64,000 nucleotides of DNA from NCBI GenBank assembly GCA_964590105.1, contig CAZPYM010000001.1, positions 236,746-300,745 on the forward strand, in the 5' to 3' direction. The position numbers were made by a program, and so were the translations under genes. Within the stretch, counting starts at the first letter, position 1; every line of letters begins with the position of its first letter. Below are positions 2,995 to 30,548 of the stretch, piece by piece. The notes beneath the pieces are model-generated. The model made no database searches. It was not told the origin of the DNA and saw nothing but the letters and a program-made list of their open reading frames with translations. This stretch comes from an uncultured Gammaproteobacteria bacterium. Lineage in GTDB: Bacteria > Patescibacteriota > Patescibacteriia > UBA11705 > JABHMO01.

Positions 2995-4551
2995 ATGATT
3001 ACTTCTGAACAATTATTGGTATTGACAGGTGAAACGTTAAGCATCAATGATATTGTCGATGTTGCGCGTCATAAACGCATGAAGGTTATTATTAGTGAAG
3101 AAACAAAAAGTAAAATGCAAGCTTCCCGAGATTATGTGGCTAAAGTCGCAAATGAAAAAAGAGTTGTCTACGGCGTCACCACTGGTTTCGGAAAATTTAA
3201 AAATGTTGTTATTGCGCAGGATCAATTGTGTCAAATGCAAGAAAATTTAATTATGAGCCACGCTGTGGGCGTGGGTGAGCCGCTCAAAGAAGAAGAAGTC
3301 AGAGCGGCTGTTTTAGTCAGGGCAAATTCTTTGGTAAAGGGTTATTCTGGTGTGAGAATCGAATTGGTTGAAAAACTGCTTGAATTGGTCAATGCGGATA
3401 TTTACCCTTATGTTCCCTGCAAAGGATCAGTCGGCTCAAGCGGCGATTTGGCTCCATTGTCGCATATTATGTTGGTAATTCTTGGTATGGGTGAAGTGAT
3501 AGAAGGCGGCCAGAGAAAACCAAGCAATGAAGTATTGGCAAGGCTTGGGATTCAACCAATCAAGCTGGTGGCAAAGGAAGGCCTGGCGCTTATTAATGGT
3601 ACTTCAGTAATGACAGGTATCGCGGCCTTAGCAATTTTTGACGCAGAATTATTGACCCAAATGGCGGATATCTCCGGCGCAATGACACTTGAGGCTACTA
3701 TGGGTACGGTTGCTGCTTGTCATCATATGGTCCATTTAGCGAGACCTCATATTGGACAGCAAACTGTCGCTGAAAATATTCGTAGGCTATGCGCGGATAG
3801 CGCAATCGGTTATTCACATCGAAACTGTGATCGCGTGCAAGACGCTTATTCTCTTCGTTGTATGCCACAGGTGCATGGGGCTGTCAGGGATTCACTTCGA
3901 CATATTCGATCAGTAGTTGAAATAGAATTAAATTCCGCCACGGATAATCCTTTGATATTTCATGATTATGATTTAATTATTTCTTGTGGAAATTTTCACG
4001 GCGAACCAATTGCTTTTGTCATGGATTATCTTGGAATTGTTATTGCTGAGCTCGGAAATATTGCCGAGCGTCGGATTTGTCGGATGGTTGATCCGGCGAC
4101 CAGCGAAGGTTTGCCGGCGTTTCTTATTCCGCATGAACAGGCCGGCCTTAGCAGCGGTTACATGATTTCTCACTATACGGCGGCCGCAGTAGTTTCAGAA
4201 AATAAAATTTTGGCTCATCCTGCTAGCGTTGATTCGATTCCGACATCAGCAAACCAGGAAGATCATGTCAGTTTTGGAACAATTGCCGCCAGAAAAGCTA
4301 GACAAATTATTGAAAATGTATATGAAGTGATTGGAATTGAATTGATGAGCGCGGCGCAGGGGCTGGATTTTCATAAACCTTTGCTTCCCGGCCTTGGTTG
4401 TCAGGCGGCCTGGGAAATGATCCGTCAGTTTGTGCCATTTTCAGAAAAGGACAAAATTTTATATCAAGATATGCAGACTATCAGAAAAGAAATAATGCTT
4501 GACGGCAAAATTGTTCAGCATGTTGAGCAGAGGATCGGCAAATTGAGTTAA
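2995..4551 (+). CDS. hutH: Histidine ammonia-lyase family (MIO-dependent aromatic amino-acid ammonia-lyase/aminomutase)
   Basis: 518 aa. Signature 'GSVGSSGDLAPLSH' corresponds to the HAL 'GSVGASGDLAPLAH' MIO motif, with Ser-Ser-Gly in place of Ala-Ser-Gly. The protein shows similarity to HAL throughout. Confidence 0.8.
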   Translation: MITSEQLLVLTGETLSINDIVDVARHKRMKVIISEETKSKMQASRDYVAKVANEKRVVYGVTTGFGKFKNVVIAQDQLCQMQENLIMSHAVGVGEPLKEEEVRAAVLVRANSLVKGYSGVRIELVEKLLELVNADIYPYVPCKGSVGSSGDLAPLSHIMLVILGMGEVIEGGQRKPSNEVLARLGIQPIKLVAKEGLALINGTSVMTGIAALAIFDAELLTQMADISGAMTLEATMGTVAACHHMVHLARPHIGQQTVAENIRRLCADSAIGYSHRNCDRVQDAYSLRCMPQVHGAVRDSLRHIRSVVEIELNSATDNPLIFHDYDLIISCGNFHGEPIAFVMDYLGIVIAELGNIAERRICRMVDPATSEGLPAFLIPHEQAGLSSGYMISHYTAAAVVSENKILAHPASVDSIPTSANQEDHVSFGTIAARKARQIIENVYEVIGIELMSAAQGLDFHKPLLPGLGCQAAWEMIRQFVPFSEKDKILYQDMQTIRKEIMLDGKIVQHVEQRIGKLS

Positions 4552-10480: not shown

Positions 10481-10554
10481 GGGTACGTAGCTCAGTTGGT
10501 TAGAGCAACGGATTGTGGCTCCGTAAGTCGCGGGTTCGATTCCCGTCGTACCCC
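10481..10554 (+). tRNA. tRNA-His (anticodon GTG), second copy; C at -1 (no encoded G-1), C73, no encoded CCA
   Basis: Acceptor GGGTACG/CGTACCC; D-arm TAGCTCAGTTGGTTAGAGC; anticodon stem ACGGA/TCCGT with loop TTGTGGC; T-arm GCGGG TTCGATT CCCGT. Base -1 is C, and CTT follows C73. Confidence 0.85.
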
Positions 10555-10561
10555 CTTCAAT

Positions 10562-11499: not shown

Positions 11500-12056
11500 G
11501 AAAATATCAAATCGGAGTCATGGGTTCGGCCGCTGATTTAAAATATGAAAAAGAATTGGAAAAAATCGCCGAAACAATTGGCCGGCTTATTGCCGAAAAC
11601 GGGCATACAACAGTTTACGGCGCTGAAAAAGACTATGATTCTCTGTCAACAGCGGCGGCCCGGGGCGCAAAAGCTGCCAATGGATTGACTGTTGGTGTTA
11701 CTTATGGCCGAGGAAAAGATATTTGGGACAAAAATGATAATACGGATGTGATCATTTGCAGCGGACTAGAAAGAGGCGGCGGCAGAGAATTTGTTTTAGT
11801 TAATAGTTGCGACGCGTTAATTGCGGTAAGCGGCGGATCCGGTACGTTGAGCGAGCTTGCAATTGCTTATCAGTTGGATATTCCCTGCATAGTGATTGAA
11901 AATACTGGCGGTTGGTCTGATAAATTAGCCGGACAATTTCTTGATCAGCGAAGCAGACGAAAAATAATTGGAGCAAAAAGCGCAGAAGAAGCAGTGGCAA
12001 AAATATTGGAAATTCTTCAAAACGAAATAAATAGTCCTTCGAAGTCTGCTAAGTAG
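11496..12056 (+). CDS. LOG/TIGR00725-family Rossmann-fold protein
   Basis: 'GVMGSA...' N-terminus and 'SGGSGTLSELAIAY' (PGGxGTxxE-like) motif. 186 aa. Confidence 0.5.
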   Translation: MRKYQIGVMGSAADLKYEKELEKIAETIGRLIAENGHTTVYGAEKDYDSLSTAAARGAKAANGLTVGVTYGRGKDIWDKNDNTDVIICSGLERGGGREFVLVNSCDALIAVSGGSGTLSELAIAYQLDIPCIVIENTGGWSDKLAGQFLDQRSRRKIIGAKSAEEAVAKILEILQNEINSPSKSAK

Positions 12057-12062
12057 TAAGTC

Positions 12063-12098
12063 GCGAGTGGTGAGTTAAACTAATTACTCACCACTCGC
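12063..12098 (+). terminator. 13-bp perfect hairpin GCGAGTGGTGAGT-N10-ACTCACCACTCGC (terminator-like, weak T-tract)
   Basis: Perfect inverted repeat directly after the LOG gene stop. Confidence 0.45.
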
Positions 12099-12158
12099 CA
12101 CTTATTAATTTATTGAGTTTATATATCATAGTTCATTGAAAGTAATAATGGAGGGAGC

Positions 12159-28277: not shown

Positions 28278-28799
28278 ATGGACATAAAAAGCAAAATTCG
28301 CGAGGTGTCTGACTGGCCAATTGCCAGCGTCAATTTCAAAGATATAACAACTTTGCTAGAAGATGGCGAAACATTTCGTTATGTTATTGATAAAATGATT
28401 GAACCATTTAATGATCAAAAAATTGACAAAATTGTGGTCCTGGATGCCCGCGGTTTTTTATTGGGCACGCCCATGGCTTATAATTTGGGCATTGGCGTGT
28501 GTTTGGTCCGGAAGAAGGGCAAGCTGCCATATAAAACCGTTGAAGCTTCATATATGAAAGAATATGGACCTGACACAGTGACTATGCACGAAGACACAGT
28601 CAAACCGGGCGAGAAAGTTTTAATTGTTGATGATCTTTTAGCAACCGGAGGAACTCTTGGCGCGGCGATTGAACTGGTTGAAAAGTTGGGCGGAGACATC
28701 ATTGGCGTGAGTTTAATTATTGATTTGCCGTTTTTGGGTGGAAGCACCCAATTCGCAAAATATAATCTTAAATATTTAGTTTCATACGATTCAGAGTGA
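28278..28799 (+). CDS. apt: Adenine phosphoribosyltransferase
   Basis: 'VLIVDDLLATGGTLGAA' PRPP motif with overall APRT similarity. 173 aa. Confidence 0.85.
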   Translation: MDIKSKIREVSDWPIASVNFKDITTLLEDGETFRYVIDKMIEPFNDQKIDKIVVLDARGFLLGTPMAYNLGIGVCLVRKKGKLPYKTVEASYMKEYGPDTVTMHEDTVKPGEKVLIVDDLLATGGTLGAAIELVEKLGGDIIGVSLIIDLPFLGGSTQFAKYNLKYLVSYDSE

Positions 28800-28868
28800 G
28801 GAAAAGAGATACTAAGAGATTGAGAAGATTAAGACAATCAAGAGCTTTAAAGAAATAAGAGTGCAAAT

Positions 28869-29234
28869 ATGGGAGTGTCATTTAAAGAGTTGCGTGTGTG
28901 GCAAAAAGGTAATCAGCTATTATTATAGGTTTATGATATTACAGCAAAATTTCCCAAAGAAGAGAGATTCTCTTTAATCCAACAATTAAGAAAATCAGCA
29001 AATTCAATTATTGCAAATATTGCTGAATGTCATGGTAGATTTTATTTTAAAGATAAAATACGGGTTTTATATATTGCAAGAGGTGAACTTGATGAGACAA
29101 GAAGTCATCTATTAGTTGCTTTTCAGTTGAAATACATTTCGGAAGAAATTTATCAAGAATTGGAAAATGAATATGCAGGTTTGCTTATCGGGATCAATGA
29201 ATTCATATTAAACTATAAAAAACGCATTAATTAG
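28869..29234 (+). pseudogene. Four-helix-bundle protein (23S rRNA intervening-sequence-type, TIGR02436-like) with in-frame TAG at 28926-28928
   Basis: 'MGVSFKELRVWQKGNQLLL-TAG-VYDITAKFPKEERFSLIQQLRKSANSIIANIAECHGRFYFKDKIRVLYIARGELDETRSHL' matches the family across the stop. It is flanked by imperfect inverted repeats. Confidence 0.6.
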
Positions 29235-29283
29235 AATTTGGTATTCGATTTTTGTACTCTTAATCTCTTATTCACTTAATCTC

Positions 29284-30063
29284 TTGTATTTAAATTATAT
29301 GCACAAATTTGGTATCATTGGAGGAAGTGGGCTCGACGACCCGAAGCTGCTTGCAAATTATTTGGAAGTTGAAGTTGATACGCCATTTGGCAAGCCTTCA
29401 AGTAAACTAACAACCGGCCAGATTGGCGGGCATGAGGTTGTGCTTATTGCCAGACACGGCAAAGATCATTCAATTATGCCGACGAAAGTTCCATTCAGGG
29501 CAAATATTTGGGCGCTAAAAGAGCAAGGCTGCACGCATGTTTTGGCGACGACTGCCTGCGGATCATTAAAAGAAGAAATAGCTCCAAGCGATTTTGTTTT
29601 CCTAGACCAGTTTGTCGACTTTACCAAACACAGGATTTTAACTTTTTATGAAGACCCAGCCTTCGCTAAAGCTACGGCCGGCGAGAAGGTTGTTCATACG
29701 CCTATGGCTGAACCGTTTGACAAGAATTTGCGAGCTAAACTGATTGAAGCCGCACGCCATCTTAACCTCAAATTTCATGAAAAGGGGACTATGATCACTA
29801 TTGAAGGTCCAAGGTTTTCCACTAAAGCTGAAAGTCACTTATTTAGAAGCTGGGGAATTGATGTAATCAATATGTCTACTGTTCCAGAGGTAATTTTAGC
29901 TAATGAACTTGGCATTCCTTATCAATCAATCGCCATGGCCACTGATTATGATTGCTGGAAAGAAGGAGAAGAAGCAGTAACGCTTGAAATAGTTTTTGCG
30001 CGGATGGCGGAAAATGCGGATTTGGTAAAAAAATTACTACTTGAAACAATTAAAAACTCATAA
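29284..30063 (+). CDS. mtnP: S-methyl-5'-thioadenosine phosphorylase
   Basis: '[12 protein letters not shown]' and '[10 protein letters not shown]' motifs with strong overall MTAP similarity. The likely start is Met at 29299. Confidence 0.85.
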
Positions 30064-30305: not shown

Positions 30306-30548
30306 ATGGAAATTAAGCCTGATGAATTATACACAACGGAAGAAGCGCAAAGCTTTCTTAGAATTAGTAATAGTACTATTAAAAGATTAATCAAAAACGG
30401 TTTGATTAAAGCAAATAAGATTGGCGGACGCTATCGGATACTTGGAAAGGATCTGTTGCATGCGATTTCACCTGAAGTTGAATCCAGAACTGCTAATTTT
30501 TATATTAAGATAAAGAAAAAGATTAAGGAAAAAGTGGAGGATTGGTAA
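30306..30548 (+). CDS. Excisionase/MerR-like helix-turn-helix DNA-binding protein at head of glycan locus
   Basis: 'TTEEAQSFLRISNSTIKRLIKNGLIKANKIGGRYRI' HTH_17-type motif. 80 aa. Confidence 0.5.
   Translation: MEIKPDELYTTEEAQSFLRISNSTIKRLIKNGLIKANKIGGRYRILGKDLLHAISPEVESRTANFYIKIKKKIKEKVEDW

Follow-up and report, generated by a model that had tools for sequence, protein, structure and literature searches.

What is a gene of the kind carried by 23S rRNA intervening sequences (IVSs) doing between two protein genes of an ordinary operon, and is it still a working gene? The question is raised by the junction between apt and mtnP in the stretch of patescibacterial DNA analyzed here (64,000 nucleotides, referred to below as the window). 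At this junction, an initial annotation had proposed a four-helix-bundle gene of the IVS type, interrupted by an in-frame TAG and flanked by inverted repeats, and had read the whole as a mobile, IVS-like cassette sitting outside rRNA. We find that the junction holds an inserted cassette of 499 nt, which consists of such a gene, carrying a nonsense mutation, between two arms that are complementary to each other. Comparable arms, different in sequence from locus to locus, bracket most of the homologous genes that we surveyed. The locus as a whole is probably best explained by an IVS-type cassette that inserted at the apt/mtnP junction, whose gene was recently broken and whose arms would pair in the transcript. 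The features of the locus are as follows.

28278-28799, + strand: apt (adenine phosphoribosyltransferase), the upstream host gene, assigned by NF002634 (220 bits, cutoff 170) and TIGR01090 (197.7 bits, cutoff 185.85)
28800-29298, + strand: the whole cassette, 499 nt from the apt stop to the mtnP start, delimited by comparison of the junction with relatives
28806-28865, + strand: 5' arm, rich in G, A and T, built of degenerate units of about 8-9 nt (AAGAGATAC TAAGAGATTG AGAAGATT AAGACAATC AAGAGC); pairs with 29240-29292
28869-29234, + strand: open reading frame (ORF) of 121 codons for a four-helix-bundle protein (PF05635/TIGR02436), by all indications now a pseudogene; assigned from profile scores, its translation and an intact orthologue
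28926-28928, + strand: premature TAG at codon 20; position 28926 is T in the window and C (CAG, Gln) in the orthologue
29232-29234, + strand: the gene's own stop codon, TAG, which is also TAG in the relative
29240-29292, + strand: 3' arm, rich in C, T and A; pairs with the 5' arm
29299-30063, + strand: mtnP (S-methyl-5'-thioadenosine phosphorylase), the downstream host gene, assigned by TIGR01694 (303.3 bits, cutoff 274.85)

The identity of the gene is clear. Its translation runs from MGVSFKELRVWQKGNQLLL through a single internal stop to VYDITAKFPKEE...NYKKRIN and the terminal stop. Scored against profile hidden Markov models with X at codon 20, it reaches 114.7 bits against PF05635 (23S_rRNA_IVP; E 2.9e-33), whose cutoff is 33.8, and 103.6 bits against TIGR02436 ("four helix bundle protein"), whose cutoff is 24. 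The initial annotation had recognized the family from the sequence. The closest solved structure by sequence is 2GSC (XCC0516; E 2.6e-12), a pentameric ring of four-helix bundles (PMC4990558), and 2RLD is also homologous. All 21 of the columns that are invariant in an alignment of 25 family sequences are present in the window translation; the core residues considered were W11, E32, N45, A49, N50, A52, E53, G56, D62, K63, R65, Y68, R71-G72-E73, E76, S79, H80, Y102 and L105. A functional family member would have an uninterrupted frame, and this one is broken by the TAG at codon 20. The location also stands as originally described, since both neighboring genes, apt and mtnP, exceed their NCBIfam equivalog cutoffs. 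An intact orthologue, P0002 (121 aa, 86% identical in amino acid sequence), likewise lies between apt and mtnP and is carried by two Candidatus Falkowbacteria genomes and by metagenomes. Between the window ORF and this orthologue, the ratio of nonsynonymous to synonymous divergence (dN/dS) is 0.14, and when derived amino acid changes are assigned using 28 outgroups, seven fall on the window branch versus eight on the orthologue branch, which is no excess.

In 25 aligned homologues, codon 20 encodes an amino acid (Q, N, A, E, K, M, R, L or D), and the orthologue in L006-L008 has CAG at the same site, so the TAG of the window corresponds to a single C-to-T transition. Sequencing error, which would have disposed of the case, is excluded by six other contigs (L001-L005 and L009) that are 100% identical over the region and carry the TAG. 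These contigs come from three assembly sources (ENA, Logan and JGI) and several runs, probably all of one study, and thus amount to separate libraries and assemblers but not to separate populations; a seventh contig has the same gene call. The genetic code of the window appears to be the usual one for bacteria, as its 53 non-overlapping long ORFs cover 89% of the window in code 11 and end in TAA (38), TGA (8) or TAG (7), bearing out the earlier observation that all three stops are in use. TAG ends ORFs at normal length, for example that of UGDH (426 aa), and no suppressor tRNA is found among the four tRNAs of the window (His, His, Thr and Trp). Thus, neither of the marks of a code in which TAG means Gln, namely avoidance of TAG as a stop and a suppressor tRNA, is found in the window. 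Downstream of the TAG, the first in-frame ATG, GTG or TTG is a TTG at 29127, codon 87. Because the ORF is otherwise intact and conserved, its inactivation is recent, and the evidence supports the earlier suggestion of a fresh pseudogene, produced by one nonsense mutation. Trace read-through of the UAG by tRNA-Gln is conceivable.

One might take the 136-aa database protein P0001 for an intact allele, since it reads Gln at the premature TAG as well as at the terminal one. Its sources, L009:304-714 and L010:87-497, lie on short contigs (a 540-nt and a 1317-nt one) with the same DNA as the window, and under code 11 the protein is not obtained from its own contigs. P0001 was therefore rejected as an intact allele; it is a gene-caller artefact, produced by a code-15-style call (TAG = Gln) on identical DNA.

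The two spacers that flank the gene are complementary to each other over nearly their entire length (69 nt on the 5' side, 64 nt on the 3' side). The pairing is thus wider than the inverted repeats first claimed, which are located at 28814-28834 and 29259-29285. Between 28807-28864 and 29241-29291, a duplex of 41 bp in seven helical segments is predicted, with a free energy (dG) of -34.4 kcal/mol; shuffled window arms gave -19.1 +/- 3.5 kcal/mol, and none of 500 shuffles was as good as the observed pair. The outer helix joins 28807-28834 on the 5' side with 29266-29291 on the 3' side, and this outer stem also appears when the element is folded whole, in the minimum free energy structure and in the centroid. 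Both arms are repetitive. The 5' arm is composed of units resembling AAGAGATT, with the best self-similarity at a lag of 9, and the 3' arm contains two direct units of 16 nt (29252-29267 and 29268-29283) with the core CTTAATCTC at 29259 and 29275. The spacers of the relative pair likewise (dG -32.2, with 0/500 shuffles as good), and its 3' spacer is ~80% identical to that of the window. The cassette is fitted closely between its neighbors, as the TGA stop of apt lies 7 nt 5' of the first paired base, and the ATG of mtnP, whose N-terminus agrees with those of its relatives, lies 7 nt 3' of the last. In silico, therefore, the flanks do form the long stem that the initial annotation had envisaged.

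Relatives at graded distances, recovered by a metagenome scan with Apt, present the apt/mtnP junction in three states.

L006, L091 and L099: Apt 91% identical to that of the window; cassette present, with the ORF intact
L092 and L093: Apt 83% identical to that of the window and also 83% to that of L006; spacer of ~100 nt without the ORF
L094 and L095: Apt ~70% identical to that of the window; empty junction, in which the apt stop and the mtnP start overlap by ~14 nt

In the Apt tree, the window and L006 pair at 91%, L092 joins them at 83%, and L094 and L095 stand outside at ~70%. The empty junction of the last two, together with the hairpin without an ORF in L092 and L093, identifies the cassette as an insertion. 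In L092 and L093, the spacer (3019-3130 in both) reads TAA-GCGAATTAAGCGATTAAGCGAATTGAG-(loop)-CTCAATTCGC...TTAATTCGCTTAATCGC-...ATG and folds as a hairpin (z-scores of -6.8 and -6.5) with arms in the style of the cassette. Its units, GCGATTAAG / CTTAATCGC, have C:G where those of the window, GAGATTAAG / CTTAATCTC, have A:T on both arms, a difference that is compensatory at the unit level. The two hairpins differ from each other within the 3' arm. Neither a target-site duplication nor a direct repeat is visible at the boundaries in the window or in L092.

The simplest history would be one insertion, at a translationally coupled apt-mtnP junction, before the three lineages split, with the nonsense mutation arising afterwards in the window lineage. 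The state seen in L092 would mean that the ORF was later lost there, or else that a hairpin stood at the site first and the ORF entered it. The cassette shares its site with a genome whose neighboring genes are near synonymous saturation, and because of this it can be called mobile on an evolutionary scale alone. Thus, the earlier description as an IVS-like cassette outside rRNA is supported: an Rfam scan finds no rRNA in the window, and the empty and ORF-less junctions argue for an inserted unit, while the mobility is confined to that longer time scale.

Arms of this kind are a family-wide trait. Our survey comprised 84 homologous genes at 80 GTDB loci (L011-L090), and 81 of the genes entered an inverted-repeat test, in which the repeat between upstream and downstream flanks had to outscore all of 20 shuffles; as controls we used 313 further genes from these loci. 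Pairing between non-cognate arms was dropped as a null, as many loci share similar units, and was replaced by the shuffles and the control genes. A bracketing inverted repeat was found at 65 of the 81 homologues versus 18 of the 313 controls (5.8%, about chance; Fisher p = 4e-42). Tandem short units lie 5' of almost every gene and their reverse complements 3' of it, for example GAATTAGT GAATTAGA GATTAG, AGATTAAAGATTGAAGATT, GATAAATGATAGATGATA and ATGATCACATGATCTTATGATC (see L014:2930-3410, L049:2930-3400, L064:2920-3390 and L080:2720-3200). The units vary between loci yet stay complementary within a locus. Three contigs carry paired cassettes, separated by between a few hundred bases and ~2 kb (L031, at 3001 and 3607; L067, at 3001 and 5103; L080, at 784 and 2793), and each cassette has its own, different unit, so the arms match within and not across cassettes. 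In the genomes sampled, bracketing arms with locus-specific sequence are thus the rule for the surveyed clade, which takes in Patescibacteria, Planctomycetota, Elusimicrobiota, Chloroflexota and others.

The composition and placement of these arms are also consistent from locus to locus. Among the 58 clearest loci, C makes up just 3.7% of the 5' arm and G just 4.1% of the 3' arm. The arm starts a median of 7 nt past the upstream stop, 20 of 53 upstream genes end within the arm itself, and the arm ends a median of 11 nt ahead of the next start. The neighbor has the same orientation as the gene in 104 of 113 cases versus a background of 221 of 271 (p = 0.008). Stop triplets are enriched in the arms above the expectation from composition, and 45% of the 5' arms (~26 nt) close all three reading frames versus 19 +/- 5% in shuffles. 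The units have a period of 7 or 8 in 35 of 41 scorable loci, 6 or 9 being rare, and such a period would rotate a stop through all three frames. None of the 20 homologous loci with large ORF-free flanks lies in rRNA. Several cassettes sit in same-strand tRNA clusters or directly upstream of transfer-messenger RNA (tmRNA; ssrA), that is, in stable-RNA operons other than those for rRNA (L036:3001-3799 and L039:3001-3779; also L026, L031, L042 and L073).

Two further observations concern arrays of the same general appearance. At a minority of loci (L013, L026, L029, L035 and L052), C/T/A-rich units of the same orientation are found on both sides of the gene, with no inverted pair, and the upstream array at these loci may be the 3' arm of another element. 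In the window itself, a 21-bp hairpin with a 10-nt loop (TAAGTCGCGAGTGGTGAGT / ACTCACCACTCGCCACTTA; 12051-12110, z-score -4.6) begins at the TAG of the upstream ORF; its 5' arm is G/A/T-rich and it has no T-run, and it could be an ORF-less hairpin of the cassette kind or an atypical terminator.

We propose the following course of events. In an ancestor of the Candidatus Falkowbacteria-related lineage of Patescibacteria, the cassette would have inserted precisely where apt meets mtnP in the operon, and in the window population a single C-to-T change later turned Gln20 (CAG) into TAG, leaving the rest of the gene undecayed. With no promoter or terminator of its own, the cassette would be transcribed together with apt and mtnP; a scan for sigma-70-like promoters between the two genes returned just weak 9-of-12 matches, and a terminator scan of the same interval found none. 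In the RNA, the arms would then pair as a long interrupted helix of ~41 bp, so that the 3' end of apt meets the 5' end of mtnP. By analogy with 23S rRNA IVSs that carry the same gene, RNase III may cut within this helix. Such a cut would free the ORF RNA and split the operon transcript into three RNAs, with the flanking genes unharmed, and the stop codons in the arms would insulate the reading frames of the neighbors.

Several results weigh against this account. The fold of the whole 506-nt element is not more stable than those of its shuffles (z-score -1.2), and we have accordingly taken the arm-arm duplex alone as evidence. When the 41 pairs of the window are mapped on the relative, 25 are kept, 9 are broken and 7 fall in gaps. 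The two species use different pairing registers, a result of the repetitive arms, so that the positional count is uninformative and the locus has no classical covariation. Across the surveyed loci, G.U and A.C mismatches in the arms number 56 versus 46 (38 versus 30 for the two feasible types), so that this comparison, aimed at separating an RNA from a DNA role, does not favor sense RNA. As to present-day mobility, there is no second copy of the gene or the arms within the window, and no close relatives occur in viral contigs. Finally, the ORF has diverged too little. Between the window ORF and L006:6001-6366, the proportion of synonymous differences (pS) is 0.34 and the estimated synonymous divergence (dS) is 0.45, versus a pS of 0.64-0.77 (Fisher p = 4e-7) and a dS of 1.45-1.8 or saturated for seven neighboring genes. 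With its dS so far under that of its neighbors, a single insertion followed by vertical inheritance alone does not explain the ORF.

This last result suggests a different history, in which the window lineage and the relative acquired the cassette, or at least its ORF, independently or exchanged it after their split, with this horizontally moving element homing to an existing hairpin or junction. Such a history would fit not only the synonymous sites but also the amino acid identity of the ORF, which at 86% exceeds the ~50-65% of most neighbors, and the ORF-less hairpin at the same site in L092. However, the identity profile has no sharp step at the cassette edges, and the 5' arm is its least conserved part. 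Moreover, of 55 orthologous locus pairs in Pirellulales and Phycisphaerae (the L014-L041 set), 50 show a lower pS for the four-helix-bundle gene, whose protein is 82-94% identical where the next gene is 43-89%, and a general constraint on synonymous sites would explain this pattern equally well. We therefore regard separate arrival or exchange as quite unlikely to be the right account of the locus as a whole, while the low dS itself could reflect either exchange of the cassette between lineages or constrained synonymous sites. That the cassette is merely younger than its flanks was also considered as the sole cause of the low dS, and is weakened by the recurrence of the pattern in an unrelated clade. 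A related alternative retains the insertion and changes the nature of the arms, which would be the terminal inverted repeats of a non-autonomous DNA element (similar to miniature inverted-repeat transposable elements or to Correia elements) with its transposase elsewhere, the RNA stem being incidental. The presence and absence of the cassette among relatives and its ORF-less derivative are what such an element would leave, the mismatch test shows no bias to sense RNA, and a C-poor 5' arm with a G-poor 3' arm looks alike on both strands. Yet the arms differ by locus, even between the neighboring cassettes of L031, L067 and L080, which is hard to square with one transposase. The boundaries in the window and L092 have no target-site duplication, the window has one copy with no near-identical copy elsewhere in its 64 kb, and the co-orientation with both neighbors and the tight fit to the junction suggest a constraint at the level of the transcript. 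Taken together, these points make a DNA element unlikely.

The remaining alternative concerns the gene itself. Full-length protein would still be made if code reassignment, a suppressor tRNA or programmed read-through allowed the TAG to be decoded. A near-cognate tRNA-Gln would insert Gln at UAG, Gln is also the ancestral residue at codon 20 and the residue that P0001 has at both TAGs, and the remainder of the ORF is undamaged. But P0001 is an artefact of gene calling on short contigs of the same DNA, TAG ends 7 of the 53 long ORFs at normal lengths in a window with a high coding density in code 11, and the window's tRNAs are those for His, Thr and Trp. In the relative, furthermore, TAG is the gene's stop while codon 20 is CAG. 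Decoding of the TAG is therefore very improbable, and an inserted, IVS-type cassette with a recently broken gene and arms that would pair in the transcript is the account that we retain.

The surroundings of the cassette are those of an ordinary operon. The window has a GC content of 37%, and its nearest named relatives are Candidatus Falkowbacteria metagenome-assembled genomes. Rfam searches, at the gathering threshold for the window and at E <= 1 for 28700-29400, match no RNA family in the cassette, and PADLOC has no match for the gene. Downstream of mtnP, the window has a gene for an excisionase-type helix-turn-helix protein (HTH_17, 80 aa, 30306-30548). The relative L006 has a polysaccharide-synthesis gene at this position, and gene order 3' of mtnP is thus not conserved. 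Elsewhere in the window, tRNA-His (GTG) occurs twice, at 1341-1416 and 10481-10555, 9 kb apart, in an organism with a small genome.

For the window, the consequence of these findings is modest, namely the recent loss of one accessory gene by nonsense mutation. The family-wide pattern of arms is the more interesting result. The gene family is already known; tandem-unit arms flanking it outside rRNA were not described in any paper reached by full-text literature searches, nor was their occurrence at operon junctions across phyla. The window locus, with its empty-site and ORF-less relatives, is a case in which a gene-plus-stem unit was cleanly inserted in an ordinary operon junction, and the survey may recast IVSs as a general type of transcript-embedded cassette. 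We tentatively suggest, as a serious possibility rather than a settled view, that PF05635 genes with locus-specific, stop-rich inverted arms are phylum-spanning cassettes of this type, of which the rRNA IVSs would be a special case that happened to be found first. This suggestion also covers where they sit, between co-oriented genes (in mRNA operons, in tRNA clusters and upstream of tmRNA), the ORF-less hairpins left behind, and an ORF that strong purifying selection maintains and whose synonymous divergence is unusually low; the window would hold a freshly inactivated member. It predicts that RNase III processes operon mRNAs at the arms and that the stop-rich units act as translational insulators. 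There are also two practical warnings. Intact-looking database proteins of the PF05635 family can be mistranslations with TAG as Gln, which could mislead checks based on homology, and the tandem units beside PF05635 genes could mislead finders of repeats or of CRISPR.

How does the cassette compare with known systems? It has some likeness to bAvd, the accessory protein of diversity-generating retroelements (DGRs), as the protein matches PF22296 at 29.8 bits, PHROG 3206 ("Avd protein of DGR") at 9e-12 and NF033474 at 41.5 bits. Unlike true Avd proteins, however, it scores under the cutoffs (40 and 80 bits), and no reverse transcriptase is found among the genes called within ~6 kb on each side; the neighbors are glycosyltransferases, Metallophos, apt, mtnP, HTH_17 and UGDH. 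A second comparison is with Correia/NEMIS and ERIC elements, inverted-repeat elements that lie between co-oriented genes, are co-transcribed with them and, in Neisseria, are cleaved by RNase III. Those elements are multi-copy and conserved in sequence, have no ORF and make target-site duplications, whereas the arms of the cassette are locus-specific, enclose a conserved gene and show no duplication.

The closest parallels are the IVSs of rRNA. What bacterial IVSs and their four-helix-bundle ORF do, and where they came from, has been an unanswered question since the early 1990s (PMC4990558). The ~100-nt hairpin at the junction in L092 and L093 resembles the ORF-less rRNA IVSs of Salmonella, Yersinia and Campylobacter and the short insertions in rRNA of the candidate phyla radiation (CPR). 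In CPR bacteria, members of this ORF family are found in insertions of 16S and 23S rRNA, and insertions that lack an ORF share those sites (PMC11270868), much as ORF-less and ORF-bearing states occur at the one apt/mtnP junction. The differences are that the hairpin lies at a junction of an mRNA operon and that its arms are tandem units of 8-9 nt rather than an extension of an rRNA helix. Members of the ORF family have also been seen lodged between cas genes (PMC3936711).

The likeness is greatest to the ORF-containing 23S IVSs, such as those of Leptospira and of Coxiella burnetii, the latter with S23p. The Coxiella IVS is 428-444 nt long, its termini form a 28-bp stem and RNase III cuts inside the stem; its ORF is preceded by an AG-rich AGAAGA and two to three tandem heptamers (GACAGAT), whose number varies among strains, and is in decay, one strain having a 176-bp deletion (PMC4990558). 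The cassette, at 499 nt, likewise has a PF05635 protein inside, complementary termini that enclose the element with a helix of ~28 bp, an AG-rich stretch and tandem units of ~7 nt before the ATG, and an ORF that tends to decay while the hairpin stays. Unlike a 23S IVS, it lies between two protein genes and not in helix 9, 25 or 45 of 23S rRNA, and excision by RNase III, demonstrated in Coxiella, is here proposed by analogy. Judged by what its sequence reveals, the window cassette thus matches an IVS in all but location.

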